A stretch of 64,000 bases of DNA. It comes from Alphaproteobacteria bacterium. Lineage in GTDB: Bacteria; Pseudomonadota; Alphaproteobacteria; SP197. The stretch lies in the NCBI GenBank assembly GCA_965116515.1, contig OZ220705.1, forward strand, positions 2,399,565-2,463,564. Direction: 5' to 3'. Below, piece after piece: positions 9,983-50,859 of this stretch. The translations under genes and the position numbers were made by a program. Numbering within the stretch: position 1 is the stretch's first letter; every line of letters starts with the position of its first letter. The notes beneath the pieces are model-generated. The model did no database searches. It saw only the letters and a program-made list of their open reading frames with translations, and had not been told where the DNA came from.

Positions 9983-11466
9983 GCCGACCCCGCAATATCC
10001 TCTGGCTGAACACGGATCAGCAGATGACCGCCAACAGGCCCGGCGCAGCGCGCGAGCTGCCCCTGCAAAGGAAACTGGCTGCGCGGGGCATGAACTTCAG
10101 GCGGGCATACACGGCGCTCCCCATTTGTTCGCCGGCGCGCGCCTCGATGCTGACGGGCCGTTATCCCCACAATCACGGTCTGACAGAAAATGACGGGCGT
10201 TTTGGCGGACGAACCGGCCTGGAGAAGTCCGATACCCTTGTGACCGACCCGCTTCTTGCTGAGGGGTACCGTTGCGCCTGGTTCGGCAAATGGCATCTGC
10301 ATCGCAAGCTCGACGCGCGTGCTTTCGGTTTCGAGGGTTACGCGCCGGCGGACTATGCCTATCCCTATGCCAGCGCGGAGTATCGTGCCTATCTCGAACG
10401 CAACGCGTTGCCTGACCCGATAGCGCGGATCGAGTTGTCAGGAGAAAGCGGTACTCCGCCAGGCACACCGGTCGCCTTGACCCGGTCCGAAGACTGGTTC
10501 GACTTCGAAGCGGGCAGCGCGATCCTCGAAGGACCAGCCGAAACGCATGAAGCCTTCTTTGTCGCCGAACTCGCCGAACGCTGGCTTCGTGATGCGGGAG
10601 ACGGTCCCTTCTTCATGCGTGTCGACACCTGGGGCCCGCACCCCCCTTATCTGGTTGGCGCTCCCTTTGCCGGCATGTTCGCCGAACTGGACAGCGCGGC
10701 CTCGCCCAACCTCGTCTCGGACCTGAAAGCGCGCCCTGCTCACCACGCGGCGTATCGCGACTACTGGCAGGAAACTCTTGGCGACAAGGCCCGTGATTTT
10801 GCACTGCTTTCGCGGCGTGCGCTGCAACTGGCCGCCCTCTGCGAGGCGGCCCTGGTGCGGCTCCTGGACGTGCTTGATGAAGGTGGAAGGACCGATGACA
10901 CGATCGTTGTCTTCACGGCCGATCACGGGGACGCGGTAGCCTCGAACGGCGGCACGATGAACAAGGGCGGGCTGATGGTGGAAGAAACGTTGCGTATCCC
11001 CATGTTGATCGCCGGACCGGGCATTGCCCCCGGACTGAACGACAGCCTGGTCTGCAACATCGATCTGGCGCCAACGTTGCTCGACCTGTGCGGGATCACC
11101 GCACACGAGATGGACGGAACCAGCCTTTGCCCGCTGCTCTGGCGCACCGGACCCTTGCCCCGCGACGGCCTGATGACCGAGCACTATGGTCTGAAGATAC
11201 CGCTCTGGCAGCGTGCGTTTCACAAAGGGCACTGGAAGCTCGTCGTGCAGGAGGACGGATTCACCGAGTTGTATGACCTCGCTTGCGACGCTGCCGAGAT
11301 GAACAATCTGGCCAACAATGTCACCCATGCAGGGACGCTTCGCGACATGCGGGATGGTTTGGCGAAGGCACTGGCGAGCTACGGTGACAACTCAGCTCCC
11401 GCGATGGCCTTTCGGGATGCGGCACAGGAAGAGCCCGTTCCCTTCCCGCGGCGTCATCCGGGGTGA
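9979..11466 (+). CDS. Sulfatase (Cys-type arylsulfatase family).
   Basis: Sulfatase signature CSPARASMLTGRYPHNHG (C-x-P-x-R) and the metal-ligand region; 495 aa. Confidence 0.85.
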   Translation: MSRPRNILWLNTDQQMTANRPGAARELPLQRKLAARGMNFRRAYTALPICSPARASMLTGRYPHNHGLTENDGRFGGRTGLEKSDTLVTDPLLAEGYRCAWFGKWHLHRKLDARAFGFEGYAPADYAYPYASAEYRAYLERNALPDPIARIELSGESGTPPGTPVALTRSEDWFDFEAGSAILEGPAETHEAFFVAELAERWLRDAGDGPFFMRVDTWGPHPPYLVGAPFAGMFAELDSAASPNLVSDLKARPAHHAAYRDYWQETLGDKARDFALLSRRALQLAALCEAALVRLLDVLDEGGRTDDTIVVFTADHGDAVASNGGTMNKGGLMVEETLRIPMLIAGPGIAPGLNDSLVCNIDLAPTLLDLCGITAHEMDGTSLCPLLWRTGPLPRDGLMTEHYGLKIPLWQRAFHKGHWKLVVQEDGFTELYDLACDAAEMNNLANNVTHAGTLRDMRDGLAKALASYGDNSAPAMAFRDAAQEEPVPFPRRHPG

Positions 11467-35732: not shown

Positions 35733-36025
35733 TCAGCATCGACTGCGGCACCAATAGAGCGAGTGCCGTTTGACGTTCTTCATGCTTGCCAGTGCCTGGG
35801 GGTGTAGACGAACTCGAAGCCGTTCCACAACGCCTTGGCCTCGTCCGGCGGGTAAGCTTCGTAGAGGGCGCCGGATTGATGGGTGATGAGATTGTCCATC
35901 ACCAGAGTGATGGTGGTGGCGTCCTGAGAGCGCTCGGCGATGTTGGCCAGGAACTGCGCCCAGTCGATCTTGGTCCTGCGCTTGCCGGCCAGAGGCTCTG
36001 TGGCCATGAACACGTTGCAGATGCC
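35733..36025 (-). pseudogene. C-terminal remnant (~95 aa) of a Tc1/IS630-superfamily DDE_3 transposase, different from the intact IS630 copy.
   Basis: YEFRRCG...LVMDNLITHQSGALYEAYPPDEAKALWNGFEFVYTPRHW matches the DDE_3 C-terminus (LDNxSxHK ... FHFTPxHxSWLN). The N-terminal part is absent and the 3' end is frameshifted. Confidence 0.55.
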
Positions 36026-36269
36026 GCACCGTCGAAACTCGTAGTCCTTGCACCGGTCGACGGGAGGATGGCGCCTTGCCGCTCCGTCCTGGACGGCAGC
36101 GCAAACCGAGCGATCATCTCCTTCCCCGATGACCCGCAGGTATCGCCATGCAGCCGCAACGCAATCGGCGATTCGGATTGCTGCTGCCCCGCAAGGAAGC
36201 TGTGTCACCCGGAATTCGGTCAGCCGCGTCCCAGCCGGACGCCGGTTCGACCGCACACCCCGGCGCGGT

Positions 36270-38813
36270 TCAGAATGCGCGGCGCCAGCGCATCAGCAGT
36301 ATTGCCTCGTGCTCGCCCCGGACGTGTCCCGCGTCGCGCGAGGCGACCGCCGCCAGGTGCGCCTGGCCGGCCACCGCAAGGGGGCGGGACCAGATTAACT
36401 CGAGGTCGATCTGGCGGCCCGAGGGTTCCAGGTCCAGGGACGCCCGTTCGACCCATACGCTGCCGTCGGGGAGCCGGCCCGATACCCAGCTCAGCCGCGC
36501 CTCTCCCCCCTCGACGCGCAACGGCTGGGAGAGGCGCAACGCCAGCTTACCCCCGGCACGGTCCACCCCTTTGCCGACCAGGCCGAGCGCGAACGCACCG
36601 GTCCACAGCGCTGACACGTCCTCCACCATGCCGTGTCCCGAACTCCCCGCGCGACTCAGGCCCGCATGGGCGCTGGCGAGCAGGCTCCAGCGCCCGTTGA
36701 GGCGCCGATGCGCCGAGAACCCCGCCATGACGGTATCCCCGCCCAGCGCGCCGAACGCCCCGCGCGACCGGCTGCCGACCGGCCCCTGAGGCTCCGCAAG
36801 CCATCCCGCCTGCACCGCGAGACCGGGTAGCAGGGAATCGGAGAAACGGTACTCGGCAAGCACGCCCGCAGCTGCGTCGCCCTCGCCAGCCCGCCGCTCG
36901 CCGTACTGCGCCGTTCCCCGGAAGGCGGCGATACGGATTGCGGCCTCGCCGAGCGCGCCCGCATAGCCGATGCTGGCGCCGTCGCGGGCGAAGCCGGAAA
37001 AGGGATTGGCGAACGCCGCGTCGTCGGTGAACGTGCCGGAATCGACCGGGCCGCCCTCCGCCGCGCCGGAGCCGGCATGCAGGCCGAACCGCCAGCCCGG
37101 ATGGGCGCGGTAGCTGAACAGCAAGCGTCCGTTGCCGATCTTCCGTGTCAACCAAAGCGAACCGATCGCGCCGGGAGCCGGGCCGGCGGCATCCGGAACG
37201 CCCTCGCCGGTCGGGGAACCAGGCGTCGTTGCAGCGCCGGTCCCGGACGGGAAGGCATCGAGGCGCAGCCGGATCTCGCCATCTTCCGCGCGCCAGACCG
37301 CGCCGCGCGGATCGCGCCCCAGGGCCCTCAGACGGTCCCCGAGGCGCGGCCGGGCGAGCCCATCGCGCCGAAGATGGTCGCCTAGCGGACGGAAGAACGG
37401 CGCATCGAGCGCGTCGAAGCTCGCGACCTCGCGCGATGCCAGCCCCCGTGTCAGGGAGTCGCCGAAGGCTGCGCCCATGTGGAAGACGCTGGCGGCGCCC
37501 GGCGCCGAAGCACCGGACAGCGAGCCTGCGGTCAGCATCCGCGTCTCGCCCACCGGCCGGGTCGCGGCGTCGAGGTCCAGGAACCCCTGGCCGTAGGTGT
37601 CGGAGTCGGCGTATGCCCCCGACCGGTCGGCGGTGGCGAGCAGGCGCGCGACGATCTCGTCGTTGCCGAGCTGGCCGCGGAAGTGCTGAGCGAGCAGCCC
37701 GATCCCGCCGGTGACGAAAGGCGCGGCCGCGGACGTGCCGGCCTCCTCGAAGGCGAGGTAGCATTCCGGTGTGCCGGCCGGACAGTAGTAGCCGGGCACC
37801 GGACCGGCGACATCCACGCCCAGCGCGGCCAGGCAGAAGGCCTTCGCGATGCCGCAACGACTGGAGAACGGTGCGATCCGGCCTTCCCGGTCCGTCGCCA
37901 CCACCGCCAGCGAATGGCCGCGCAGCTCCGGAATCCGCACCGGCAGCCCGGCCGCAATCTCGACCGAGCTTGCGGGGTCGGCGGAGCCGTTGGGATCGCC
38001 TTCTCCGCCGGCATTGCCGGCCGCCCAGACATAGATCGTGCGTGCGCCGGCCGGGGTGTCGGCTTGCGCGATGGCCTCGATCACGTTGGAAAAGCGCCCG
38101 CGCAGTTCCCCGGCATCGAAGTCCTCGATGTTCCCGGGCAGGCCGAAGCTGGCATTGATGGCCGTTGCTCGGCCGTTCAGTCGTTGGAAGGCCGAGGCGA
38201 TCTGTCTCTCGAGGCCAGCCTCGAGGTTGCGGATCAAGTTCGGAAGGTCGCGGACCTGATCGGGCGTGGGGTTCTCGCCGAGGATGTCCTCAAGGTGTTC
38301 GCCGACGTCGCGGAAGCCCACCGAGATCACGTCGGCGTCGAACGCGACGCCATGGATCGCCGATGCGCTTCCGGCGTTCACATCGGCGGTCGCACCCCGG
38401 CTGGCCGCCATGATGCCGGCGACGAAGGTGCCGTGCCCTTCCAGGCTCTGGCAGGTGCCGTGGGCGTCCAGGTTGTCGCAGGCATCGAAGTCGGGGTCGT
38501 AGCCCTCGACGTTGGCACTCTCCAGCTTGCCCGCGAACTTCGCATGGCCCGGATCGACCCCGCTATCGACGATACCGAGCGTGACCCCTTCGCCGGTCGC
38601 GCCCCGCGCATAGGCATGGTGCGCCTTGATCCGGGCCAGGCCGTACTGGTTGCGGAACTCCGGGTGCTCCGCGTACGCGCGCCGACGCTCCGCCTCGGAT
38701 TCCGGAATCCCGGGTTCCGCCAGGACCGGGTGCATGGAAGACCTGTCCCCTGTTCCTGCGCAGGCCGTGACGATCAGTGCCAGCCCGGCCGCCAGCATCC
38801 ACATCCGACCCAT
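36270..38813 (-). CDS. Subtilisin-like (S8) serine protease autotransporter with a lipoprotein signal (NalP/SphB1-like architecture).
   Basis: Lipobox LIVTAC. S8 catalytic triad context (GIVDSGVD ... HGTFVAGIMAA ... GTSAAAPFVTGG). C-terminal beta-barrel translocator ending ...MRWRRAF. Confidence 0.85.
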   Translation of the reverse strand: MGRMWMLAAGLALIVTACAGTGDRSSMHPVLAEPGIPESEAERRRAYAEHPEFRNQYGLARIKAHHAYARGATGEGVTLGIVDSGVDPGHAKFAGKLESANVEGYDPDFDACDNLDAHGTCQSLEGHGTFVAGIMAASRGATADVNAGSASAIHGVAFDADVISVGFRDVGEHLEDILGENPTPDQVRDLPNLIRNLEAGLERQIASAFQRLNGRATAINASFGLPGNIEDFDAGELRGRFSNVIEAIAQADTPAGARTIYVWAAGNAGGEGDPNGSADPASSVEIAAGLPVRIPELRGHSLAVVATDREGRIAPFSSRCGIAKAFCLAALGVDVAGPVPGYYCPAGTPECYLAFEEAGTSAAAPFVTGGIGLLAQHFRGQLGNDEIVARLLATADRSGAYADSDTYGQGFLDLDAATRPVGETRMLTAGSLSGASAPGAASVFHMGAAFGDSLTRGLASREVASFDALDAPFFRPLGDHLRRDGLARPRLGDRLRALGRDPRGAVWRAEDGEIRLRLDAFPSGTGAATTPGSPTGEGVPDAAGPAPGAIGSLWLTRKIGNGRLLFSYRAHPGWRFGLHAGSGAAEGGPVDSGTFTDDAAFANPFSGFARDGASIGYAGALGEAAIRIAAFRGTAQYGERRAGEGDAAAGVLAEYRFSDSLLPGLAVQAGWLAEPQGPVGSRSRGAFGALGGDTVMAGFSAHRRLNGRWSLLASAHAGLSRAGSSGHGMVEDVSALWTGAFALGLVGKGVDRAGGKLALRLSQPLRVEGGEARLSWVSGRLPDGSVWVERASLDLEPSGRQIDLELIWSRPLAVAGQAHLAAVASRDAGHVRGEHEAILLMRWRRAF

Positions 38814-39000
38814 CTGTCCTCCGAGCGAGTCCCGGCGATTCGCACCGCCGCGATGGTAATCCCATCAACATGCGCCCGGCAATCCCGGTGCGGTTGATCC
38901 GCGCTCGCGGTGGTGATGGTGTCGGCACCGCGAGCGCTGGCATCGGAGACGCGGTGCGCGGCATCGCAACGGTAGGGGCCGTTCCGTCGGAGGCACGACG

Positions 39001-39219
39001 ATGTGGCTGACCAACTACGCGCTTCGGGTGCTGATGTACATCACCGTCAACGGCGAGGGGCTCGCCACGATCCGGGAGACTGCGGAGCGCTACGGCATCT
39101 TGAACAGCCACCTGACCCGGGTGGACCGGGACCTCGGCCGCGCCGGGTTCGGCGAGACGGTTCGCGGTCGGGGCGGCGGGCTGAGGCTGGCGAGGTCGGC
39201 ACCGACACTATTGATCTAA
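39001..39219 (+). pseudogene. N-terminal fragment (72 aa) of an Rrf2-family transcriptional regulator, truncated at a junction with an integrase fragment.
   Basis: MWLTNYALRVLMYITVNGEGLATIRETAERYGILNSHLTRVDRDL matches the Rrf2 wHTH; the ORF stops exactly where integrase-derived sequence begins. Confidence 0.6.
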
Positions 39220-39473
39220 CTGACGGCAAGACAGGACCACGGAAAGTCTACCTTAACAGCGAAGCCCGAGGGATCATCGAACGCCAACCCCGAACGGGCA
39301 GCGATCATGTCTTCCCCTCGCCCTTCGATCCAACGTCGCCGATATCGGCGGGATCCATGCAACTCTGGTTCACCCTCCGCAAACGGGCCTGCATTGAGGA
39401 CGTGCGTCTCCATGATTTGAGGCATTATTCCCGGATTCGGCTTATTCCGGGTATCCTGGGCATGAACTCTTGA
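39210..39473 (+). pseudogene. 3' fragment of a tyrosine integrase gene, homologous to nt 27330-27560 of integrase 2.
   Basis: Encodes ...DGKTGPRKVYLNSEARGIIERQPRTGSDHVFPS...MQLWFTLRKRACIEDVRLHDLRH then diverges. About 80% nucleotide identity to the integrase-2 segment. Confidence 0.7.
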
Positions 39474-39553
39474 ATCGGCGTGACTTCAACATGTTGTGCT
39501 GGTTGATGAGGGTTGAAGTTCCGGGATAATCCGGTGGTCTTCTCCTGCTGGCA

Positions 39554-39850
39554 ATGTCGCCAGCGAAAAGGAGAAGAGCGATGTCAATAGAGTATTACTT
39601 CCCCAGCCGAACCAGCCAGCGGTGGTTGGGTGTCGGTCCACTGGCCGAGGATCTCGACCAGTTCGCCGCGTCCCTTGCGGCACAGCGATATGCCCGCCAA
39701 TCGGCGGCAAGCAAGCTGCGGCTCGTGCGCAATCTCAGTCGGTGGCTCGAGCACCAGGGCCTGGGGATCGAAGCACTTGACGAACCGCGCAGCCGCCTGC
39801 GTTCCGGGCGCGCTTATCGGCGCACGCCATGCTTCACCAACGCGCGGTGA
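39554..39850 (+). pseudogene. Possible N-terminal (SAM-like domain) fragment of another tyrosine recombinase, truncated by the end of the giant autotransporter gene.
   Basis: Weak similarity to phage-integrase N-terminal core-binding domains; the ORF runs into the opposite-strand giant CDS. Confidence 0.3.
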
Positions 39851-42800
39851 TCTCGAACCCGACCGTGTGCTCCGGCGCAGTCCAGTCGTTCTTGCTGCGC
39901 GTCGCGCGTACGCTGAACGACAGATCCGGCGCGTCCGCTTCCGGCGTCAGCCGCCAGCCGAGGCTGTAGTCGCGCTGGTCGGCGGCAAGACCGAGCCCGG
40001 CATGCGGACTGCCGGTCCAGCGCTCGCCGAGGGCCGGCAACCCCCAGGCCGCCTCCAGCGTCCAGCGGGACGCGGCCTCGCTGCCCGCGCGATCCTCCAG
40101 CATCGCCGGCTGGAACAGCGCGTCGAGGCCGCCGGTGGCCTGCCCGCCGAACTCCTGGCGCAGGCTCAGCGACGGACCCCGCCCGCTCGCCGGGTCCGGA
40201 TCGAAGGCAAGCGAGGCCGCATAGCCCCGGTCCTTCAGGTCGTCGTTGCCGTGCGCGATCAGCGTGCGGCCCGAGACGTCGAGCGACAGGCCCAGCGCCG
40301 GGTCGCTCCACGCGATCCCGCCGCCGATCTCGACCCCGAAGCCGGTCTCGGCGTCGCCGCCGTCATGGCGCGCGCCGATCTCCAGCTTCGGCACAAGGCT
40401 GCCGCCGCCTTCAAGGGCCATGCGGTAGCTGCCCTCCAGGCCGAGCCTGAGCCGGGTCGCGTCGGAGTCCGACGTCGCGAGGTCGCGGGTCTTCTCAGAC
40501 GAGGTCCGCGTCCACAGCGCGTCCGAGGTCACCGCCAAGGCGGGACCGCTGCCCTCCGCCGGGAGCGCCAGCAGGTCGCCCCTGAGGCCCGCCGCCGCCA
40601 TGCTCCAGCTGGTGTCGGACTTGTAGCTGCCGCCGAGCGCGGTCTTCAGCGTCACCTCGCCCGTGCCATAGCCCGCCGCGCCCCAGAGCTTCAGACGCTC
40701 CGAAGCCTGCAACGCCGCATAGGGGATCGCCGCCGTCAGCGACGCCTCCACACTGCCGTCGCCCGCGCGCAGGGCGCCGCTGCAAAGACCGCTGTCCACG
40801 CCGTCGGGACAGCTCTGGCCGTCGGGACGGGGGCTGACATCGCTGTCGCGGTAATCGCCCTCGCCCGCGCTCTGCACGAGCGCCAGGCCGACCAGCCACT
40901 TGCCCCGGACATAGTCCGCGCCCAGCATGCCGGTGGTGACCGTGCCGTCGAGCGAGAACGTCCCCTCGCGGCCGTCGAAGCTGCTCTGCGCCGCCCGGCC
41001 CCAGAACGCCATGCTGCCGCCCGAGCCGTCCGCCGCGCCGGTCAGCGAGAAACTCGAGCCCAGCAGCGCCTCGCGGCCCGTCATGCCGCGCGATTGCGGC
41101 TGCATTCCGTCGAAGCCGCTGCCGAACCCGGCCGCGTCATGACCGAAGCCGCCCGGGCCGGACTGGCCGCCGAACGCCTGCACGACATCGGCCAGCGCCC
41201 GCGCGCCGGTCCCGCCCGGAACAGCGGCGCCGTCCGGCGCATGAGCCGGAGCCGCACTGCCGTTGGCGGCCGGATCGGACGAGAGCGCCTGCCCGGCGAT
41301 CGAGCCCTGCATGCCGGGTGTGCGGTCCGCCGCCATGCGGCCCGCGATCCCGTCCAGCGCCTGCTCCGCAACCGTGCGGGCGAACCGCGCCAGCCACGCC
41401 GCCGGCATCGGGTCGTCGTTCACAATCGTCCCCACCCCCACCGCGTCCGCAATCGGCGCCCCGCTCGCGCTCCACAGCACGAACTCGAACGTCTCCGCCT
41501 CCTCGTCATGGGAGTCGTCGTAGATGTACACCCACACCCGCTTCTCGGTCTCGCCCGCGCGAAAGCCGAGATTCCAGCTGTTGGCAAGGTAGTCCACGTT
41601 CGCTTGCGCCGACACAGGCGTCGACTCGCGGGTTCGGTAGTGCACCGTCACCGGGCGCTCCGACGGGGCGCTGAGCCGGATGGTGAACCACATCAGCCCT
41701 TCGCCTTCCTTCACCGTCGCGTCGGCCACCGAGAGCACCGGACCCGCCGCCGCGTCGTCGTCCGACACCGACACCGTCGCCGCGCCCCGCGAGGACGAGA
41801 CCGTGTAGCCGTCGCCGTCCTTCAGCGTCACCGTGACCGAGCCGTCCGGCTCGTCCACCGCATCGTCCACCGTGGGAACGGAGAAGACCGCCCGGGTCGC
41901 GTCCTTCGCGATCGTCACGCTCCGCGAACCCTCGTCGTCCGCCGCCACATGGTCGCTGCCCGCGGCCTCCGTGACCGAAAGGGTCACCGTCAGATCCGCA
42001 TCCGGCGCGCGGTCCGCGGTCAGCGTGAACGGCGCCGCGCCGCCCTCCGTCACCGACGCCGCATCCGCCGTAATCGACACCGCGGGCGGCGGCAGGTCGT
42101 CGTCTTCGATGGACACGCTGCCAGACGCGGAGGAGCCCACCGTGTAGCCGGCGCCGGCCGCCACCGAGACCGTGACCGAGCCGTCCGGCTCGTCCACCGC
42201 ATCGTCCGCCGTGGGAACGGAGAAGACCGTCCGGGTCTCGCCTTTCGCAATCACGACCGTCGCCGTGCCCTCGTCGTCCGCCGCCACATGGTCGCTGCCC
42301 GCGGCCTCCGTGACCGAAAGGGTCACCGTCAGATCCGCATCCGGCGCGCGGTCCGCGGTCAGCGTGAACGGCGCCGCGCCGCCCTCCGTCACCGACGCCG
42401 CATCCGCCGTAATCGACACCGCGGGCGGCGGCAGGTCGTCGTCTTCGATGGACACGCTGCCAGACGCGGAGGAGCCCACCGTGTAGCCGGCGCCGGCCGC
42501 CACCGAGACCGTGACCGAGCCGTCCGGCTCGTCCACCGCATCGTCCGCCGTGGGAACGGAGAAGACCGTCCGGGTCTCGCCTTTCGCAATCACGACCGTC
42601 GCCGTGCCCTCGTCGTCCGCCGCCACATGGTCGCTGCCCGCGGCCTCCGTGACCGTGAGCGTCACCGTCAGGTCCGCATCATGTGCGCGGTCCGCGGTCA
42701 CCGTGAACGACGCCGCGCCGCCCTCCGTCACCGACGCCGCAGTCGCCGTAATCGACACCGCAGGCGGCGGCAGGTCGTCGTCCGCTATGGACACGCTGCC

Positions 42801-45800
42801 CGATGCAGGGTCGCCCACCGTGTAGCCGTCGCCGGCCGCCACCGTCACGCTCACCGAGCCGTCGGGCTCGTCCGTCTCGTCCCCGGTCGTCGTCAGTGTC
42901 AGCGTGGCGCTGCCCGTCGTCGGAATCTTCACCGATCGGCTGCCCGCGGTCACGCCGAACTCGCCGGCAGTCGCCACGGTCACCGTCACCGCAAGGTCCG
43001 CCGCGGGCGCCGGGTTCGCCGTCACCGTGAACACCGCATCCCCGCCTTCCGTGACGTCCGCACCCGCCGAGACGCTCACCGCCGGCAGGGTCACGGGCGC
43101 CGCTTCCAGCGCCTCCAGCGCAGCGGCCACCGGAACCCACCGTTGCCAGCCTCGGTCCGCATGGGTCTGCGCCTCCGCCGCCGTCATCGCCGTGTAGCCG
43201 TAGCCGTTGTCGTCGCCGAACGCGGCCAGAACCCGCTTCCAGCGGTCCACATGCTCCTGGCCGTGATGCGTCTCCGCCGCATAGCCTCGAACCTGCGCCA
43301 CCAGCGCGGGGTCCACGCCCGGGGTCACGGGATCGGTCACGACCGAATCCGGCACGTTCTGCGTCTTGACCCCGTCGTCGTCCAGCAGCGCCACCGTCAC
43401 CTCGAACGGCTTGCCGACCGTATAGCCGTCGCCTGCCTCGATGCGCCCCACGACCGTGCCGTCGGCCAGGGCGTCGTCGTCCGATATCGTCGTAAGAGTC
43501 CATGTCGCCGAGGTGATCTCCGCCCGGATCGTCACCGTCCCGAGATGCCCGCCGCCGGTGCGGTCGTCCCCCGAGCCCATCTCCTCGTCCGCCGCCACGT
43601 TCACCACGAGATCGCCCGCCGGCGCCGGGTCCGCCGTCACCGTGAAGGTTACGTCGCCGCCCTCCGTCACCGAGGCCCGGTCCGCCGAGATCGTCACCGC
43701 CGGGGGCGTCGCCTCGACCTGCCGGCTCGGCGGGGCGCCAAAGTCCACCACATGCACGAGAGTCCGGCTTTTGTCGCTGTCGAGCGTCGCATGGCTCGGG
43801 CTCGACAGGGTTACGTAAAAGAACTCGGGGTCTTCCGCCACGTTGTCGATGGTGAGCGGAATATCGATCGTCTTCTCCGTCTCCGACGGCCCGAAGGTGA
43901 GGGTGCCCGAGGTATCGGTGTAGTCGCCGGGAGCCGCGGCCGTGGCGCCAACGGTCGCGTATCGAACCGTGACGTTCCTGTTGGTGGCGCCGGTCTTCGT
44001 GACCGTGACGGTGACCGTACCGTGGTGGCGCTCGTGCACGGCGTGGGAGCCGCTCGCGAACCCGATGACGGGAGGGGGGTCGTCGTCGTTCACTGTTATG
44101 AAAGAGGCGTCAAGTTCGGGAAAGAAAAATATTCCAGGATCCAAAGTCGCCCCACTCGGGTTCGTCAGGGCCACATAGAACATCTCGTTCGGCTCATCCG
44201 CGTCGTCGTTGACGATCGGCACCGTGACGGTCTTCTCCGTCTCCCCCGATGCGAAGCTCAGGGTGCCCGAGATATGGGTGAAGTCGGCGGGTGCGGTGGC
44301 TCTGCCGGGGCTTCCGGGTGGGTCAACGAATTCAATGGTCTCATAGTCCACCGTGGCGGCGCCGGCGCCGTTCTTCGTGATCGTGACGGTGACCGCGCCT
44401 TCGTCTTCCCGTACGCTATGAAACCGAGACTTGAACTTGATGAGGGGCGCCGGAGGATGGTTCCTTATTGTCACGAAAGCTCGATTCTCGCCGAGTTGCT
44501 GGTAATACCCGTCACGCAGGGCTACGCCGAATACCTCGTCGGTCTCGACCACGCCGTCGTCGACGATCGGAACGGTGAAGGACTTCACCGTCTCCCCTGC
44601 CGCGAAAGTCAGGGTGCCCTCAACGATGGGGCGGTCGTGGGGCGGTTCGGCGAAGGGCTCGCCCCTGGCAATGGTCAGATACTCAACCTCGCCGGCGCCG
44701 GGGCCGATCTTCCGGACCGAGATGACGGCCGGGCCCTGGTCTTCCCGTACGTAATAGTGCGCGGACGTGAACTCGAAGAAGGGCTGCTTGATTCTCACCG
44801 TCGCAACGCGCTTCGGACCGAGGGCCGCCCCGCTCGGGTTCGACAGGGTAATGGTGAAGTTCTCGTCGCTCTCCGCCGCGCGCCCCTCCGGCGTGACGTT
44901 GTTGACGATCGCAACGGTGACGGTCTTCTCCGTCTCCCCCGATGCGAAGCTCAGGGTGCCCGAGGCGGCGGCGTAGTCGGCAGGCGCGGTGGCCGAGCCG
45001 TTAGAGGTCGCATAGTCCACCGTGGCGGCGCCGCCGCCGAATTTCACGACCCTGACGACGGCCGCGAGTCCTTCGCCCGTGTCTATGGCGTCCCGCTTGA
45101 ACTCGATGAGGGGCGTGTTCCCGTCGTTGTCGTTCACCGCCACGAAAAGCGTGCCCGTGACGGAACCGTAGTCCGCGCCCGATGCGGTGTGCGTCAGCGT
45201 CACGCGGTCCCAGGTGCCGTCGGTATCCTCGCCCGCGCGGAGAGTTACCGTCCGAGGCCTGTGCCAGTTCGACGTGGTGAAGGTCAGCGTGTTCTGGTCG
45301 CCGGCCATGCCGCCGTTGGTGTCCACCGTCACGTCCGTGCCGGAAGCGCCGCCCACCGTCACCGTTACGGCGCCGCCTGCGGGCCTGCTGTTCAGCCTGA
45401 CCGTGTAGGAGGCGCTGCCGCCCTCCGCCACTGTGAGCCTTTCAGCGGGCGACAGGATCAGGCCCGTAGGCCGTGTGGGATGGACCCACACAGAACTTCC
45501 CCACGGCCTTGCGGACCCAGGGCAGACACCCCCTCCATCGGTTGCATTCGACAGGAACACGCGGAAGTGTCCCGGCGCCCCGGAGACCGGCACGGTGAAG
45601 CTCTTCGACGTCTCCCCCTCCGCGAACCGCAGGGTGCCCGCGGTATGGGTGTAGTCGCCGGGCGCGGCGAGCGTGCCGTTCCCGGTCTCATAGTCCACCG
45701 AGGCGGCGCGGGTGGCGGTCCTGGTGACCGTGACGGTGGCCTCGCCTGCTTCGTTGGTCCAGATACCGAAGGAATCCGACGCGAAGTCGAAGACGACGGC

Positions 45801-46064
45801 GGCTGCGATGTTGACGGGCGGGGCGACCGACGGGACCGGGGTGGGGCTTCCGCAAAGGGAAACGGACTGGGCCGCCGCCCCAGGGGCCGTGCCCGCCAGC
45901 AGCGGCAGGCACAGCAGAGCGGCAAGCAACCCCCGGCGCAACCGACGCACACCCTCACGGCCATGGAGGCGCGCGGAAGCGGGACTGCCGGAGGAAGAAC
46001 ACTCAGGCGGGGAGGATGGACGGCAGCAACGGCGCAGCCGTGCGGGAACGCTCATGGCCGTCAC
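39834..46064 (-). CDS. Giant (2076 aa) Calx-beta-repeat autotransporter / adhesin-like surface protein with an extended signal peptide and a C-terminal beta-barrel.
   Basis: Multiple Calx-beta-like units (VDYATSNGSATAPADY...GTLSFASGETEKTVTV). C-terminal translocator ending ...GFEITARW. The opposite-strand 2167-aa ORF is an Arg-rich antisense artefact. Confidence 0.85.
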   Translation of the reverse strand: MTAMSVPARLRRCCRPSSPPECSSSGSPASARLHGREGVRRLRRGLLAALLCLPLLAGTAPGAAAQSVSLCGSPTPVPSVAPPVNIAAAVVFDFASDSFGIWTNEAGEATVTVTRTATRAASVDYETGNGTLAAPGDYTHTAGTLRFAEGETSKSFTVPVSGAPGHFRVFLSNATDGGGVCPGSARPWGSSVWVHPTRPTGLILSPAERLTVAEGGSASYTVRLNSRPAGGAVTVTVGGASGTDVTVDTNGGMAGDQNTLTFTTSNWHRPRTVTLRAGEDTDGTWDRVTLTHTASGADYGSVTGTLFVAVNDNDGNTPLIEFKRDAIDTGEGLAAVVRVVKFGGGAATVDYATSNGSATAPADYAAASGTLSFASGETEKTVTVAIVNNVTPEGRAAESDENFTITLSNPSGAALGPKRVATVRIKQPFFEFTSAHYYVREDQGPAVISVRKIGPGAGEVEYLTIARGEPFAEPPHDRPIVEGTLTFAAGETVKSFTVPIVDDGVVETDEVFGVALRDGYYQQLGENRAFVTIRNHPPAPLIKFKSRFHSVREDEGAVTVTITKNGAGAATVDYETIEFVDPPGSPGRATAPADFTHISGTLSFASGETEKTVTVPIVNDDADEPNEMFYVALTNPSGATLDPGIFFFPELDASFITVNDDDPPPVIGFASGSHAVHERHHGTVTVTVTKTGATNRNVTVRYATVGATAAAPGDYTDTSGTLTFGPSETEKTIDIPLTIDNVAEDPEFFYVTLSSPSHATLDSDKSRTLVHVVDFGAPPSRQVEATPPAVTISADRASVTEGGDVTFTVTADPAPAGDLVVNVAADEEMGSGDDRTGGGHLGTVTIRAEITSATWTLTTISDDDALADGTVVGRIEAGDGYTVGKPFEVTVALLDDDGVKTQNVPDSVVTDPVTPGVDPALVAQVRGYAAETHHGQEHVDRWKRVLAAFGDDNGYGYTAMTAAEAQTHADRGWQRWVPVAAALEALEAAPVTLPAVSVSAGADVTEGGDAVFTVTANPAPAADLAVTVTVATAGEFGVTAGSRSVKIPTTGSATLTLTTTGDETDEPDGSVSVTVAAGDGYTVGDPASGSVSIADDDLPPPAVSITATAASVTEGGAASFTVTADRAHDADLTVTLTVTEAAGSDHVAADDEGTATVVIAKGETRTVFSVPTADDAVDEPDGSVTVSVAAGAGYTVGSSASGSVSIEDDDLPPPAVSITADAASVTEGGAAPFTLTADRAPDADLTVTLSVTEAAGSDHVAADDEGTATVVIAKGETRTVFSVPTADDAVDEPDGSVTVSVAAGAGYTVGSSASGSVSIEDDDLPPPAVSITADAASVTEGGAAPFTLTADRAPDADLTVTLSVTEAAGSDHVAADDEGSRSVTIAKDATRAVFSVPTVDDAVDEPDGSVTVTLKDGDGYTVSSSRGAATVSVSDDDAAAGPVLSVADATVKEGEGLMWFTIRLSAPSERPVTVHYRTRESTPVSAQANVDYLANSWNLGFRAGETEKRVWVYIYDDSHDEEAETFEFVLWSASGAPIADAVGVGTIVNDDPMPAAWLARFARTVAEQALDGIAGRMAADRTPGMQGSIAGQALSSDPAANGSAAPAHAPDGAAVPGGTGARALADVVQAFGGQSGPGGFGHDAAGFGSGFDGMQPQSRGMTGREALLGSSFSLTGAADGSGGSMAFWGRAAQSSFDGREGTFSLDGTVTTGMLGADYVRGKWLVGLALVQSAGEGDYRDSDVSPRPDGQSCPDGVDSGLCSGALRAGDGSVEASLTAAIPYAALQASERLKLWGAAGYGTGEVTLKTALGGSYKSDTSWSMAAAGLRGDLLALPAEGSGPALAVTSDALWTRTSSEKTRDLATSDSDATRLRLGLEGSYRMALEGGGSLVPKLEIGARHDGGDAETGFGVEIGGGIAWSDPALGLSLDVSGRTLIAHGNDDLKDRGYAASLAFDPDPASGRGPSLSLRQEFGGQATGGLDALFQPAMLEDRAGSEAASRWTLEAAWGLPALGERWTGSPHAGLGLAADQRDYSLGWRLTPEADAPDLSFSVRATRSKNDWTAPEHTVGFEITARW
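41830..42850 (-). repeat. Three near-identical 339-bp (113-aa) in-frame tandem repeats inside the giant autotransporter gene, flanked by more diverged copies.
   Basis: Exact 339-bp periodicity visible in the sequence (for example, identical >300-nt blocks starting near 41960 and 42299). Protein repeats PPPAVSITA(T/D)AASVTEGGAA...SVSIEDDDL. Confidence 0.85.
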
Positions 46065-46080
46065 GCGGACGCAGCAAGGG

Positions 46081-46125
46081 CGACCCGGCGACCCGGCGAC
46101 CCGGCGACCCGGCGACCCGGCGACC
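46081..46125 (-). repeat. Simple sequence repeat, an 8-bp unit (CGACCCGG / GTCGCCGG) x5.6, located 17-62 bp upstream of the giant autotransporter start codon.
   Basis: cgacccggcgacccggcgacccggcgacccggcgacccggcgacc read directly. Confidence 0.9.
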
Positions 46126-46126
46126 T

Positions 46127-46158
46127 ATTATAGCGTCCGCACCGTCCCCGATTGTCAA
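46127..46158 (-). promoter_or_regulatory. Putative sigma70 promoter of the giant autotransporter gene: perfect TTGACA and TATAAT hexamers with a 20-nt spacer, immediately upstream of the 8-bp SSR.
   Basis: Minus strand reads gcTTGACAatcggggacggtgcggacgcTATAATag. The spacer is longer than the optimal 17 bp. Confidence 0.4.
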
Positions 46159-47177
46159 GCCCCCGGACGAACGCACCTCATCGCGCCCGACGGTCACGCC
46201 CAGCGCTCGCGCCGGCGACTCTCCCGCCGTGCGCACCATCGCCCTTGCCGTATCCATCATGGTCATCGTATCGCCTTCGACCCCGTCGCCCGGACCGCCG
46301 ATGCATGCAACGCGCACGCCCGCCGAGCGGCGGCGCTTGTTCCTACGCTACGCCGGGCCCGGCGGAAAATGCAAACAACATCGCCCGTCGCCGTCCGCGT
46401 TGAGGCAGGGTGAGACGCGCTCCACCCTCTCGACCGGGCGCTGGCGGTCGGCGCGATGATCGAGGCGCAGCGCGGACACGTCGATGATCGCGTTGTCGAG
46501 GGTCCCGTCAACGCGCGCGCCGGCCGAGCGATCGGATGCCGTGTCGAATCCCGTTCATGTCGCGGTGCACCGGCATCGACCTGGAGCGGAGCCCTCTGCC
46601 GACCCCCGAGCGGGGCCCGCCGCGCGGCACCAGGTTGCACCAGCCGCCGTCGGCGAGCGCTTTCGCCTTCTTGTTCCAGCGCCGGATCTGCGAGCGCATC
46701 CAGTCGCCGGTGCGCCACTCCCTGACGACCTGCCGGAAGTCCTCCCTGGCGCCCCACACGTCCACCGCGATCTGGCGCGGCTTCCTGCCCCGCCGCAACC
46801 CGTCCATCAGGATCGCCAGGTTGCGGTCCTCCTCGCGCTGCCGCCGGGACGAGGGGACGAACGGCCCGTCACCTGCCAGAATTTGGGCAGCCGGCGCATG
46901 GTGTGCGGCATGCGCAGCCCGAACGGGTGGCGCAGCTCGATGCCCACGCCCTCGGGAAACGGCCCGGCATCGCGCAGCAGGATCTGCACCGCCCGCCCGC
47001 GGTGCTCGATCTTGAGCACGAGGCCGCCGTCGAGCAGCCGCCGCCCCTCGATCGAACCTCCGCCCGCCGCGACCACCGTGGCGAGCGGCGCGACGCCCGG
47101 AGCGATCATCGCCTCGGTCATGCCCTCCTGTATCTAGAAGGGCGAGGCGGGGCCGCCCTCGCCCCGCCGGTCCGCCC

Positions 47178-47400
47178 ATGCGGTAGCTGCCCTCCAGGCC
47201 GAGCCTGAGTCGGGTCACGCCGGAGTCCGACGCCGTGAGGTCGCGCGTCTTCTCCGAGGAGGTCCGCGTCCACAGCGCGTCCGAGGTCACCGCAAGGGCG
47301 GGACCGCCTTCTGCGGGCGGCGCCAGCAGGTCGCTCCGGAGCCCCGCCGCCGCAATGCTCCACGGGTCGCTCGTCGGAGCCCCTGTGACCGCAACCTGCC
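47178..47400 (-). repeat. Dispersed duplicate (~85% identity) of a 220-bp segment of the giant autotransporter beta-domain region (compare 40418-40640).
   Basis: Nucleotide colinearity; encodes ...AAAGLRSDLLAPPAEGGPALAVTSDALWTRTSSEKTRDLTASDSGVTRLRLGLEGSYRM, matching the giant protein. Confidence 0.6.
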
Positions 47401-47514
47401 GCAAACCGCCATCTTCACCAAACCCGCCTTCCACGGCCTCGCCGCAGTCAGCCCGATGGACCCCATCGGGTCACCCGAATGCCCTCATCCACAATGACCG
47501 GACAATCCGGGAAA

Positions 47515-47730
47515 TCAAGGCCCCAGGCGCGCAAGATAATCCGAGGAATCAGTGGTCAAACAGTCCGCGAGACAACACGGATAGTCGTTGCGTCCCTTGC
47601 CGCGTCGCTTCTCCAGAGCCGCGATGAGAGCGTCGTCGGGCAGGGCATCGAGAACCCGTCGCAGGCGCTCGATGTCGTCAAGGCTCTCGACATGGGACCA
47701 GGAAAGGAGTAAGGGAGTGGCTGTCGTCAT
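47515..47730 (-). pseudogene. Possible N-terminal fragment of an IS5/IS1182-family transposase (DUF772-like).
   Basis: ...LSWSHVESLDDIERLRRVLDALPDDALIAALEKRRGKGRNDYP resembles the InsH N-terminal domain; truncated after about 70 aa. Confidence 0.35.
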
Positions 47731-48104
47731 GGTGCTGGTCGTCCCTCCTTGCCGAGGTGGTTTGAACACACCAGACATAGCCCATGGCGACCCCTTTTGT
47801 CCACATGATCAGAGAGTTGTTCCACATCCGTGCGATGCGTGGCGGTACCGGGAGAGGGTCGGCGAGGTGTGCACCAGACTTGGGGTGGAATCCCGGCTGA
47901 CGACGCAACGCCAAAAGGGTGAATCGCCTCTTCTCAGGAACTTGCAAACAGCTCGCTGGGGTAAGACATGTCCCGGGTCTCAACTTCCTCGCCCACTCTC
48001 AACAGGTTACAAACAGCGCAGAAGTCTCGTCTTCGCGACACTGTCCGGCCCCGGCACCGCATGGCGGTCCCCGCCGGTGCCCCCCGCGTGGCGAGCGCGC
48101 ACGC

Positions 48105-49052
48105 TCAACTCACTGGCGGTTCGACCGGGACGCGCCGAACGACCCGACGATCGCCCCCGACCTGAACACGCCGCCGGCCTCCTCGTGATAACCGCCGTAG
48201 AATGTCCCCACGACGTGCTCGCCGTCCCAGTGCGTGCCCTTCGAGAACGCGCCGTCCTTCACCGCGATGCCGGTCCACGCCATCCTGTGGCCCGCGGTGG
48301 CACCGGTCCTCAGGTCGACGAAATTGTCGAGCGTGACATCGACCGAGGAGTCGCCGAAGTCGTAGATGATCCCGGCATCCCCCTGCAGCATGTCGGGAGC
48401 GGGGAACAGCCGGTTCAGGTCCGTGCCCACCGCGACGCCGGTCCACGACGCCGATCCGGATACCGGATTCGTGCCCGAAGCCAGGCCGACCGACCAGGGC
48501 GCGGCCTGGACCGAGTCGGGCGCGCCCTTGTCGGGATGGAAGCCGATCTGCACGAGAAAGGTGTTGTAATGCATCCAGGCGCCGTAGCCGGTGAGCTCCT
48601 GGGGGCGTCGGGATGGGATGTCGCATCGTAAAGGTCTGGCCGAGCCGGACGCCCCCGCGTTCCATGACCGGCAGGTATTCCGCATCGAAGAAACCCTCCA
48701 GGTCTCCTTCCCCGCTCTTGCCGTACCTGCAGGCGCCTCCCGCGCACGCCGCCCCCCAGGCGTAGCCGGGGAACTCTCCGGAGGAGCGGTAGACGCCGCC
48801 GAGTATCCAGGTGTCGGCACTCGTGACGATCTTCTCGTCGAGCGCCGAAAGCTCGTCCGAAGTCATGCCGTACGCCGTGCTTCCGGCAACGTTCCCCGAT
48901 GCGGCGCCGGCGTCCAGCAGCCAGTCCGGCGGGCCGGATGCAGTGCCCGCGCCGGATCCGGCGACCGTCTCCGCCATGTCCTCCCGGTGCCCGCCGCACC
49001 CGGAAAGAGCCAGGACGACGAGAAACGCGAACAACCCGATCATCGTGTGCAT
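48105..49052 (-). pseudogene. Surface lipoprotein with a TbpB-like C-terminal handle/beta-barrel domain (Slam-substrate type), interrupted by a frameshift at a G5/C5 homopolymer (48601-48605).
   Basis: Lipobox LALSGC at the N-terminus (frame A, 49052 to ~48606). The C-terminal barrel ...HRMAWTGIAVKDGAFSKGTHWDGEHVVGTFYGGYHEEAGGVFRSGAIVGSFGASRSNRQ is in frame B (to 48110). Removing one C restores ...RHPIPTPQELTGYGAWMHYNTF.... Confidence 0.65.
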
Positions 49053-49521
49053 ACTCAGTTACCCCGCGTATCCGGACGGACTCGAACAATGCTCCGCCCC
49101 AGTCCGGGGGCAACCCGCCGCCGCGTCGCATCCCCAATCCGCGGGCGCCGCCCGGAGAGACGGCCGGCGGGCAGGAAAGCGCCACGAACGCTGCCTGAGC
49201 AAGCCTGCCCTCCCCGGTCTGGGTCGCGCCATTGCACCTCGCAGCCTCGGCGATGTCACTGTGGCGGATTGGGTCTCGGGCGGAAACTGCGCGCGCGGAC
49301 AATGCTCTGCAGGCCGGGCTGTTGGCATCAAGACGGTGAAGGACCTGCGCGAGTTAGTGGAAACCGAGGGGCCGATGAAGCCCGACTGAGCGCCGTCCCG
49401 TTATCCATCGCGGATCGTCCCGATGGCGATGAACATCCGCTTCAGGCAATCCTGGAAGCTCCGGAAACCGAGGAGGCGGTAGAACGCCATGCGACGAGCG
49501 AAGGCCTCGTCTTCGCCATCG

Positions 49522-49848
49522 TCAATCAAATCCAGTACGACGCTTGAGCCCCACCTCGCCCGCGACATTCAGGACCCGGCCATGAGCATCAACGGCAAGG
49601 TCCGACACAAGGCCTTTGTCTTGCCAGCTTCGGTCCACTGCAATCATGGAGAGATACAGCGCTGGGATGATGCCCGTGTCAGGCGCGCGCCGGGAGCGGT
49701 CCGCGCCGAACCCGCTCGTGGCAACCACATGAGCGTTCAGTGTACAGTAGCCGAGAAACTTGAGCGAGCCGTCCGCGACCGTCACGAACACTCGCGTGAA
49801 ACCGTCTTTCGGCTGCTTCCTCGCGCCAGGGTGGCGACGAGCTCAGCG
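49522..49848 (-). pseudogene. Truncated GNAT-family acetyltransferase toxin (TacT/AtaT/KacT-like, type II TA); the N-terminal ~60 aa are disrupted by a stop.
   Basis: GYCTLNAHVV...RAPDTGIIPALYLSMIAVDRSWQDKGLVSDLAVDA matches the TacT core (GYYTLSA ... RLPRPKIPALLIGRLAVD..YQGQGLG). In-frame upstream residues ARRH... are preceded by a stop; no intact antitoxin was seen. Confidence 0.5.
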
Positions 49849-49998
49849 ATCAAGATCCACCAGCACTGGCGGCAGACCGGCAGCGTGACGGCGGCGCCGA
49901 CGGGCGGCGACCGGCGTTCGGGTTGAGGCCAGGGCATCGCGGAAGGAATCCACCCAAGGGTCCCATCTTGGCAAAAACCATGACGAAGGCTGCAAACA

Positions 49999-50859
49999 TT
50001 ACAGCTTGTACATGCGCTTGAACATGCGCGACGACCAGCTGAAGGGAAGCAGCCGTCGCAGCAGATTCATCAACCTGGCATCCATCGCCAAGTCTTGCTT
50101 CAGGCCAGGTTTCCTCCTTTCTACAAGATCAAACAGGCCCTTTGCGATTTTCTCCGGGGTCGCCAATGCACTGGAGGTATTCGCCGATGCACTGATTGAG
50201 TCCAGTTTGTCGATGTACGTCCTGTAGAACTCCTTGCCTTCCTCCGGCATGCTTGCATAGGCTTGAGAAGCATCGGTTGTCCTTGCAAGAAGGCGTGTCT
50301 TGGTAACGCCAGGCGAGGCTGAAACCACATGTATGTCCAGCAGTCCAAGGTCGTAGTACATGGCTTCCGTCAAGCCAACGAGTGCAAATTTCGAGGCATT
50401 ATAGGCGCCATTGAAGGGCTGACCCAATATGCCGGCCCATGATGTCACGTTGACTACCCGCGATTTGACGCTGTTCTGCTCATTGAATTTTTTCAACAGC
50501 GGAACACATGCTTGAGTCAGACGAACAATGCCCCAGACGTTGACATCCATCACGTGACGCATTTTGTCTTCATCGGCATACTCAAAGGGGGCGGTGTAGG
50601 TAAGTCCCGCATTGTTGATGATGGCATAGAGGCCGCATTCCTCCAGCTCGGCGGAAACTGCCGCAATCGCCTGTTCAATCTCGTCGGCAACGGTGACATC
50701 GATCCTGATTGGCGTTACATTGGAAATCTGCGCCAGGGCCTTTCCATCATCCTCGCTCCTGTAGCCAGCGAAAACCCGATAACCCCTTTGAGAAAACAAT
50801 TCTGCTGCGCAGGCGCCTATCCCGGAAGACGCTCCGGTTATCAGCACGGATTTTTCCAT
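49999..50859 (-). CDS. Short-chain dehydrogenase/reductase (SDR) family oxidoreductase; noticeably lower GC than its neighbours.
   Basis: TGASSGIG cofactor motif, NNAG, YxxxK (YNASK). Start at ATG 50859. Confidence 0.8.
   Translation of the reverse strand: MEKSVLITGASSGIGACAAELFSQRGYRVFAGYRSEDDGKALAQISNVTPIRIDVTVADEIEQAIAAVSAELEECGLYAIINNAGLTYTAPFEYADEDKMRHVMDVNVWGIVRLTQACVPLLKKFNEQNSVKSRVVNVTSWAGILGQPFNGAYNASKFALVGLTEAMYYDLGLLDIHVVSASPGVTKTRLLARTTDASQAYASMPEEGKEFYRTYIDKLDSISASANTSSALATPEKIAKGLFDLVERRKPGLKQDLAMDARLMNLLRRLLPFSWSSRMFKRMYKL

Follow-up and report, generated by a model that had tools for sequence, protein, structure and literature searches.

What does a perfect octanucleotide repeat do between promoter-like hexamers and the start of a gene for a giant surface protein? 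The question is raised by a 64 kb stretch (the window) of contig OZ220705.1 from an Alphaproteobacteria bacterium (assembly GCA_965116515.1), in which the giant gene, its leader and the repeat all lie on the minus strand. Coordinates given without a locus handle refer to the whole window. Along the minus strand a perfect -35-like hexamer, TTGACA (46158-46153), a 20-nt spacer, a perfect -10-like hexamer, TATAAT (46132-46127), the dinucleotide AG and a simple sequence repeat (SSR), (GTCGCCGG)x5.75 (46079-46124), precede a gene whose product carries Calx-beta domains and a predicted C-terminal beta-barrel. A first-pass annotation of the window had described this order of elements correctly and had proposed a candidate expression switch for a large surface protein, acting through the length and structure of the 5' leader behind a consensus promoter, or through spacing relative to an upstream element. 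The idea of a switch is supported by the data presented here, but we place its mechanism in the frame of a leader open reading frame (ORF) and not in the promoter or the leader length. We consider it probable that the octanucleotide tract acts as the hypermutable part of a switch for translational phase variation, similar to those of licA and opa, that would operate across a family of giant Calx-beta outer-membrane proteins.

The repeat tract, its alleles and its family

The tract is free of mismatches and reads as GRRVAGSP repeats in the codons of the leader ORF. Tandem Repeats Finder (TRF) reports it at 46079-46125 with a period of 8, 5.9 copies and 100% matches. Four tandem units were not found in any of 100 shuffles of the window, and the pattern TTGACA-N15-21-TATAAT, which has a single occurrence in the 64 kb, appeared in none of 100 dinucleotide-preserving shuffles. 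The start codon of the giant gene had been given as an ATG at 46064. This position is a GTG, the first start codon of the mechanically called ORF of 2076 aa, and the ATG, named here ATG-1, is found at 46055, 23 nt after the repeat. The giant ORF from ATG-1 (39834-46055) encodes 2073 aa. A scan of 45700-46500 with the Rfam covariance models gave no match at E <= 1, and a known RNA element in the leader was ruled out on this ground.

The same locus is present in three assemblies with different repeat numbers, namely 2.75 copies in L081, 5.75 in the window and 17.75 in L001. L001 is the syntenic contig that encodes the closest protein homolog, P0001 (91% identity). Members of the P0001 cluster gave two further alleles or orthologs, L081 being found through one such member. 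In ungapped comparisons of the window to L001 and L081, 496-500 of 500 flanking bases are identical on each side of the repeat. Since the three alleles differ in copy number within flanks that are 99-100% identical over +-500 bp, the tract is variable in itself. This agrees with the earlier proposal that it is a hotspot of slipped-strand mispairing, for which an identical repeat number in relatives had been named as the contrary outcome. The alleles come clean from three independent long-contig assemblies. L081 keeps the promoter-like sequence in front of its contracted repeat (2.75 units, 7851-7872), and its gene is cut after 701 codons by an insertion sequence with a DDE transposase (9983-11083). 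In L082, a syntenic ortholog that is less closely related and comes from a contig of 2x coverage, there are only two degenerate units (GGTTGCCG GATCGCC) and TATGAT in place of TATAAT at ~4100-4270, and may be a 'locked' version of the locus. An exact-pattern scan of Joint Genome Institute (JGI) metagenomes for more alleles found none.

The window locus belongs to a large family. An alignment search of GTDB species genomes with the barrel domain of the giant protein returned 325 related stretches, of which 80 were taken and 77 loci kept. They come from metagenome-assembled genomes (MAGs) labelled Alphaproteobacteria, Rhodospirillales, Thalassobaculaceae or Defluviicoccus; the set taken contains up to 10 copies from a single genome. 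About 55 usable loci share one arrangement, hereafter the cassette, composed of TTGACA, a spacer, TA(T/C)AAT, 0-2 nt and a perfect repeat. The repeat has 3-63 perfect copies of a unit of 8, 7 or 5 nt, never a multiple of three: GGTCGCCG, GGATCGCC, the 7-mer GTCGCCG and the 5-mer GCCGA are all found, and some arrays are compound. Perfect SSRs with units of 4-12 nt and at least 5 copies number 64 in 1.5 Mb of related loci, 63 of them inside the cassette. Cassettes with identical or near-identical flanks differ in copy number at other loci too (39.75/14.75/21.75, 30/10/25, 7.4/17.4 and 17.9/11.9). Some isolate names of the family genomes (RHO and CAR bins) are those of a published sponge MAG set (PMC10235432), and from these relatives we infer that the organism of the window may be a sponge symbiont.

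Several particularities of family members deserve mention. The sole perfect SSR outside the cassette in the 1.5 Mb is (GTCATCG)x8 at L019 1039-1094. Compound arrays are found at L009 5689-5992, with (GGTCGCCG)29 followed by (GATCGCCG)9, and at L023 5531-5706, with (ATCGCCGG)14 followed by (GTCGCCGG)8; they show that a variant of the unit appears and then spreads inside a single tract. At L072 2473-2700 the hexamers and ~21-23 repeat units are followed by unrelated AT-rich sequence instead of the family leader, as if the switch had been rearranged or orphaned. Related copies are found beside integrases, transposases or a TrwC relaxase (L002, L080, L081), suggesting that the gene family moves with mobile elements. 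A G-quadruplex on the coding strand, possible for GGGTCGCC units, was rejected as a general feature because GGATCGCC and the 7-nt and 5-nt units have no G3 runs.

The leader reading frame and its three phases

Both hexamers and the repeat are contained in an ORF of 87 codons (46003-46266) that runs from an ATG at 46266, 108 nt upstream of TTGACA, to a TGA at 46005-46003; its 3' end and the first 17 codons of the giant ORF share the same DNA in different frames. It is preceded by a Shine-Dalgarno (SD) sequence, GAAGG (46274-46278), 7 nt before the ATG. The region that had been taken for an untranslated 5' leader between the hexamers and the giant gene is therefore part of an ORF with its own ribosome-binding site. 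This organization recurs in the family. In 45 unique cassettes a perfect GGAGG is found before an in-frame start in 22 and a 4/5 match in 21. The start region of the main subfamily reads ...CAGGTTCGGAGGCGACGCG-ATG-ACC-ATG..., with GGAGG exactly 7 nt 5' of the ATG. Of the 22 unique cassettes with the SD-N7-ATG arrangement, all 22 have this ATG in frame with TTGACA; the distance takes eight values from 81 to 114 nt, and no stop codon intervenes before the repeat. Upstream of TTGACA the frame in which this hexamer reads TTG-ACA (Leu-Thr) is open over a median of 84 codons, versus 15 and 47 in the other frames. The distance between the hexamers is 20 nt in the window and 14, 20, 23 or 32 nt across the family, never 16-18 and always 2 mod 3. 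These spacer classes and the eight ATG distances imply roughly nine or more independent indels, all of them multiples of three.

Among public gene calls are 18 small proteins (66-84 aa) that combine the leader, the repeat-encoded residues and an out-of-frame tail, and two giant proteins, P0064 and P0098, have the leader as their N-terminus and continue across the repeat. An ATG at the TATA-ATG junction was discarded as the start: it is found in only ~40% of the cassettes, shares the frame of the leader ORF and is redundant beside the upstream SD-led ATG. A candidate promoter for the leader ORF, P1 (46345-46374), consists of TTGCAT (46374-46369), an 18-nt spacer and TAGCGT (46350-46345). In 24 unique cassettes aligned over the 150 nt 5' of the leader ATG the conserved columns read TTG...TA..GT with 17-18 nt spacing. 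The P1 hexamers are weak when compared to the E. coli consensus and are missing from the promoter scan list.

The repeat number sets the frame in which the leader ORF meets the giant gene. For 53 unique loci we define the phase as the frame of the giant ORF counted from the TAA within the -10-like hexamer. The phases 0, 1 and 2 are found 32, 15 and 6 times, whereas an untranslated repeat is expected to give equal thirds (chi-square 19.7, p = 5e-5, an optimistic value as the loci are related by descent). In phase 0, which includes the window, the leader ORF ends in 32 of 32 loci at the TGA of a CC(G)CCTGA motif, mostly 50 nt (41-59) past ATG-1. In phase 1 it ends at an ATGA over ATG-1 or 5-8 nt before it in 9 of the 15 loci and at other nearby stops in the rest, among them CGCTAG in paralogs that lack ATG-1. 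In phase 2 it is joined to the giant ORF and stays open over more than 3.6 kb. Sampled paralogs of one genome include 0 or 1 SD-led leader fused to the giant ORF; one extra copy, L047, is in frame with a different upstream ATG.

The window sequence itself can be carried through the three phases by editing its repeat in silico. With 5.75, 2.75 or 8.75 copies it has a short leader ORF ending at +50; with 6.75 or 3.75 copies it has a fused ORF of 2146 or 2138 aa; and with 4.75 or 7.75 copies its leader ORF stops 8 nt before ATG-1, at 4.75 copies in the TGA at 46063-46061. This is the first of two TGA stops (46052-46063) in the +1 frame of the giant ORF; the second, 46054-46052, overlaps the start codon as ATGA. 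Each 8-nt unit shifts the leader ORF relative to the giant gene, contrary to the earlier statement that copy-number changes would leave the frame untouched. The tract has three attributes of SSR contingency loci: a perfect short-unit repeat, polymorphism among close relatives, and placement in an ORF with a unit not divisible by three.

The frame bias also bears on the view that the tract has no influence on expression, being either a neutral hypermutable microsatellite or an artefact of assembly. GC-rich genomes might hold many variable microsatellites of this kind. Against it stand, besides the phase distribution and the clean alleles, the near confinement of perfect SSRs to the cassette and the occupation of the same position in ~55 cassettes of many genomes, where the flanks are conserved and the units have diverged. 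We regard this view as very improbable.

The sequence between the repeat and the signal-peptide-like segment bears on where the giant protein starts. The repeat is followed by a conserved CTGCGTC segment and ATG-1. From there the extension reads M-S-x-x-A-W-L-R-R-x-x-R-P-S-S-P-P-E, then a variable Ser/Pro/Arg linker and a hydrophobic RRLRRGLLAALLCLPLLAG...AAAQ segment. ATG-1 is in frame with the main ORF in most paralogs though the linker length varies. The extension is always in frame with the giant ORF and stop-free despite very different linker lengths, and it shows synonymous third-position changes across paralogs (CGT/CGG/CGC, CCA/CCC/CCG, TCC/TCA/TCT); for these reasons we take it as coding. 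The conserved motif CCTCCCCGCCTGA (46003-46015) encodes its Ser-Pro-Pro-Glu, and the TGA of the motif is the one that ends the leader ORF in the window allele; the CCG and CCT codons of the motif have almost no synonymous variation across paralogs. The signal-peptide-like segment VRRLRRGLLAALLCLPLLAGTAPGAAAQ (45867-45950) was recognised by inspection only. Gene callers in two related assemblies start the protein at or near this segment, P0001 at the homologous GTG (Met-RRLRRG) and P0002 three codons further in. We rejected GTG 45950, the choice made for P0001, as the true start with everything upstream as 5' untranslated region (UTR), in view of the in-frame, stop-free extension and its third-position variation. 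Pfam has no family for the leader peptide plus N-terminal extension, nor is an ESPR found there.

Nine paralogs have lost ATG-1 by deletion and have no ATG, GTG or TTG from the repeat to the arginine-rich start of the signal-peptide-like segment; six of the nine have no start codon before the hydrophobic core either. Their ORFs are intact and their passengers diverse. Without a start codon after the repeat, the conserved N-terminal extension of these paralogs would be made only when fused to the leader ORF.

Taken together, the following course of events can be proposed for the cassette, which presents in order a promoter of normal spacing, an SD and ATG, a leader ORF of ~45 codons, a repeat whose unit is not divisible by three, and the giant gene with its own ATG. 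Units are gained or lost by slipped-strand mispairing, as shown by the three alleles at the window locus. In a first outcome the leader ORF is fused in frame to the giant ORF, and the protein would be made directly; paralogs that lack ATG-1 would be productive in no other state. In a second, the leader stop overlaps ATG-1 or lies 5-8 nt before it, a placement that suits termination-reinitiation, and protein would again be made. In a third, the leader ORF overruns ATG-1 out of frame and ends at a conserved TGA ~50 nt later, which would give little or no protein. The window allele, with its 5.75 copies, is in this overrun state, which would be OFF or the lowest, since ribosomes would cross ATG-1 out of frame and ATG-1 has no SD of its own. 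The gain of one unit would give the 2146-aa fusion and the loss of one a stop before ATG-1. The excess of loci in the overrun state suggests that most family copies are held OFF in consensus genomes, from which cells would turn on individual adhesins stochastically.

Several observations weigh against this reading. The leader peptide is barely constrained, with 3199, 3511 and 3623 pairwise differences at codon positions 1, 2 and 3; what is conserved in the leader is the open frame and not a protein. The three alleles of the window locus share one phase, so that no change of state is seen here, and the kinship of the loci tempers the phase statistics. The fused state would place the signal peptide behind 100-300 extra residues, which is unusual. 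Translation of the leader ORF and the assignment of ON and OFF states are deduced from the DNA sequence. Finally, the hexamers are constrained at the nucleotide level, and if an active internal promoter is present there, transcription would begin within the repeat and skip the leader ORF.

This last point is the strength of a different explanation, in which TTGACA and TATAAT form a working promoter, transcription starts from the first repeat unit and the repeat is part of an untranslated leader whose length or hairpin tunes the level or processing of the mRNA, the frame being irrelevant. The two hexamers match the sigma-70 consensus at 12 of 12 positions, form the most conserved blocks of the cassette and are nearly invariant in 29 unique cassettes with the 20-nt spacer. 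In the leader ORF they read as Leu-Thr and, for TATAAT, as part of Ala-Ile-Ile, its TAA supplying, in this allele, the in-frame stop by which the giant ORF's frame is closed. Across the family the Leu codon is TTG without exception, Thr is written ACA or ACT, and Ile ATA, which are rare codons for a genome of ~65% GC. Conservation through rare codons argues that the hexamers are selected as DNA or RNA and not for their amino acids. Furthermore, the repeat begins 2 nt after the -10-like hexamer, its RNA self-pairs in a long, imperfect hairpin whose length increases as copies are added, and there are precedents for such a position: a transcribed SSR hairpin sets the expression of hmw1A (PMC12721329), and an 8-bp SSR, (GCATCATC)n, lies upstream of hmwA in Haemophilus influenzae biogroup aegyptius (PMC3309571).

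The spacing of the hexamers does not fit this explanation well. It falls outside the 17 +-1 nt of sigma-70 promoters, its variability argues against a single sigma-70 promoter, and a promoter scan with 16-18 nt spacers did not report the site. Spacer and upstream indels kept to multiples of three and a non-random distribution of phases are not expected of an untranslated region. Paralogs without a downstream start codon could not be translated from such a transcript, and two cassettes, L047 and L070, keep the repeat but have no TATAAT. In partition-function folding the predicted probability that bases around ATG-1 are unpaired remains between 0.24 and 0.27 over a range of 0.75-30.75 copies, the repeat pairing with itself, and the minimum free energy of the hairpin is no better than that of shuffled sequence (z = +1.9 and +3.3). 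The model of leader length or structure was rejected on these grounds: the flat accessibility of ATG-1 removes the simplest way in which copy number could alter the leader structure, as the first-pass annotation had supposed. A promoter of MerR type with a long spacer was likewise discarded, the spacer being neither conserved nor palindromic. We consider this promoter and untranslated-leader explanation unlikely but do not give it a negligible probability, mainly because the conservation of the hexamers is unexplained by the frame switch. The hexamers might serve as an internal promoter by which the leader ORF is bypassed or as a sigma-dependent pause signal, or have some other role.

In another explanation the leader ATG is the only true start, the repeat encodes an N-terminal linker of variable length and the out-of-frame loci are decaying pseudogenes. 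The fused forms at 6 loci and in P0064 and P0098, the intact ORFs of the paralogs without ATG-1 and the insertion sequence that interrupts one allele of the window locus fit this idea. However, 47 of 53 loci are unfused and still have open ORFs of 1,600-3,000 codons, most cassettes preserve the downstream ATG together with its ATGA/TGA context, and the long perfect repeats point to ongoing turnover and not to decay. This explanation appears to us improbable, less so than neutrality of the tract but more so than the promoter and untranslated-leader explanation.

The giant protein and its neighbourhood

Apart from the conserved N-terminal extension and the signal-peptide-like segment, the giant protein is composed of a Calx-beta passenger and a C-terminal beta-barrel. 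The Calx-beta content proposed earlier is borne out by Pfam, with six stretches of PF03160 above the gathering threshold (E = 1.5e-91, 302.9 bits), and a LapA-like match is also found. Pfam has no family for the C-terminal 524 aa even at E <= 10, and the Autotransporter family (PF03797), by which the 12-strand translocator of classical (type Va) autotransporters is recognised, has no match in these 524 aa or in a full-length scan. The last 330 aa (39837-40826), which end in ...ITARW, form the predicted outer-membrane beta-barrel domain. Their model is all-beta with ~16 strands (predicted local distance difference test score, pLDDT, of 68.8), and its best Foldseek matches in the PDB are the barrels of BamA and TamA, with E ~1e-5 and a TM score of ~0.4. 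A sequence profile of the domain built from 48 homologs found no solved relative. The name of autotransporter given to this protein by the first-pass annotation is therefore unconfirmed. The modelled architecture, with a signal-like segment, a repetitive passenger and a C-terminal barrel ending in ...ARW, resembles that of autotransporters and can be described as autotransporter-like.

The passenger contains an intragenic tandem repeat (41800-42873) of 339 bp (113 aa) with 3.2 copies and 93% matches. The allelic proteins P0001 (1926 aa) and P0123 (2038 aa) differ by 112 aa, about one 113-aa unit; the number of units in the Calx-beta passenger may also vary between alleles.

Directly 3' of the giant gene an 847-aa subtilase (Peptidase_S8) is encoded on the same strand (36270-38813), an arrangement syntenic in L001. 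An exact look-up of this peptidase, aimed at finding more alleles, gave no copy on record. Upstream, a 308-aa ORF (46508-47434, minus strand) shows a weak match to RovC_DNA-bd that does not reach the Pfam cut-off (E = 1.7e-5). The corresponding stretch is annotated in L001 and L081 as two short genes, of 104 and 83 aa, implying that one version has a frameshift. The region of the giant gene and its neighbours (36000-50000) has a G+C content of 67-73%, compared to 60-65% in the remaining window. A further tandem repeat of the window, 18 bp x 5.9 copies (TCCACCATGGGATCGTCA) with 92% matches at 56845-56951, overlaps a 600-aa minus-strand ORF (55293-57095) and would be a hexapeptide in-frame repeat if that ORF is a real gene.

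Relation to known switches and meaning for the family

In the multigene opa family of Neisseria, each copy of the outer-membrane adhesin gene has its own (CTCTT)n in the signal-peptide coding region and most copies are out of frame at any one time. The family described here resembles opa in being a multigene family of outer-membrane adhesins with an SSR in the N-terminal coding region of each copy and most copies out of frame. It differs in that the repeat is not within the signal peptide but in a leader region of its own, which precedes the alternative ATG and the conserved extension, in that the proteins are ~10 times larger and in that the hosts are uncultured Alphaproteobacteria. In the licA gene (lic1) of H. 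influenzae, slippage of (CAAT)n aligns initiation codons with the ORF and makes more than two expression states possible (PMC2212159). Shared with licA are a perfect SSR whose unit is not divisible by three, its location at the 5' end of an ORF, right after the start codon(s), and the frame alignment that decides on a full-length product. In contrast to licA, the unit is an 8-nt GC-rich one present in up to 63 copies, a second start lies 3' of the repeat with TGA stops at it, and the product is not a cytoplasmic kinase but a giant secreted protein with the cassette on dozens of paralogs.

The 7-bp (ATCTTTC)n repeats of hmw1A and hmw2A are transcribed but untranslated; they form a 5'-UTR hairpin with a downstream G-rich arm, RNase III is involved, and expression falls gradually with length (PMC12721329). 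The hmw genes and the cassette have in common a hepta- or octanucleotide SSR upstream of the gene for a very large secreted adhesin, with copy numbers that vary between strains; the repeat is transcribed in hmw and would be so here. Unlike the hmw repeats, the present one is inside an ORF with its own SD and ATG, and the evidence is for an effect of frame and not of length. Unlike the hmw hairpin, too, the predicted fraction of repeat bases paired with the leader falls to 0.05-0.2 at >=7 copies, the repeat pairing with itself. The badE gene of Bartonella is a host-associated alphaproteobacterial adhesin gene switched by SSR frameshifts (PMC11466379). The taxonomic class, the type of product and the frameshift principle are shared with badE, whose mononucleotide tracts are in the adhesin body of a pathogen, with neither leader ORF nor family-wide cassette. 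No description of this cassette or switch was found in the literature searched. Phase variation by SSRs is known; what would be new is a frame-setting contingency switch in a leader ORF, placed on a family of giant Calx-beta barrel proteins of uncultured Alphaproteobacteria.

SSR-driven phase variation is regarded as a hallmark of host-adapted pathogens with small genomes. Here the same SSR logic is found in uncultured Alphaproteobacteria with genomes of 4-6 Mb, relatives of which come from sponge metagenome bins, and with arrays of up to 63 units. The cassette also has consequences for annotation: gene callers either overlook the leader ORF or annotate it as an orphan mini-protein, and the giant genes are started at different codons. 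If it works as inferred, the switch would offer a natural design with three outcomes (fusion, coupling and overrun) for studying how the position of leader-ORF termination acts on a downstream start.

For the biology of these apparently sponge-associated bacteria we put forward a broader and more tentative idea, which we hold to be possible but for the moment speculative. Dozens of giant Calx-beta proteins per genome, each behind a three-state leader-ORF switch and with 0-1 sampled copy per genome in the fused state, could provide a combinatorial variation of the cell surface, a form of symbiont bet-hedging aimed at host recognition or at phage, with the dual-coded hexamers as a second layer of control (an internal promoter or a sigma-dependent pause). 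Host recognition is a possible target because Calx-beta domains are also the building blocks of sponge aggregation factors (PMC5400394). If the switch works in this way, it would give a testable handle on surface variation of symbionts in a host that phagocytoses bacteria and uses Calx-beta for self-recognition.

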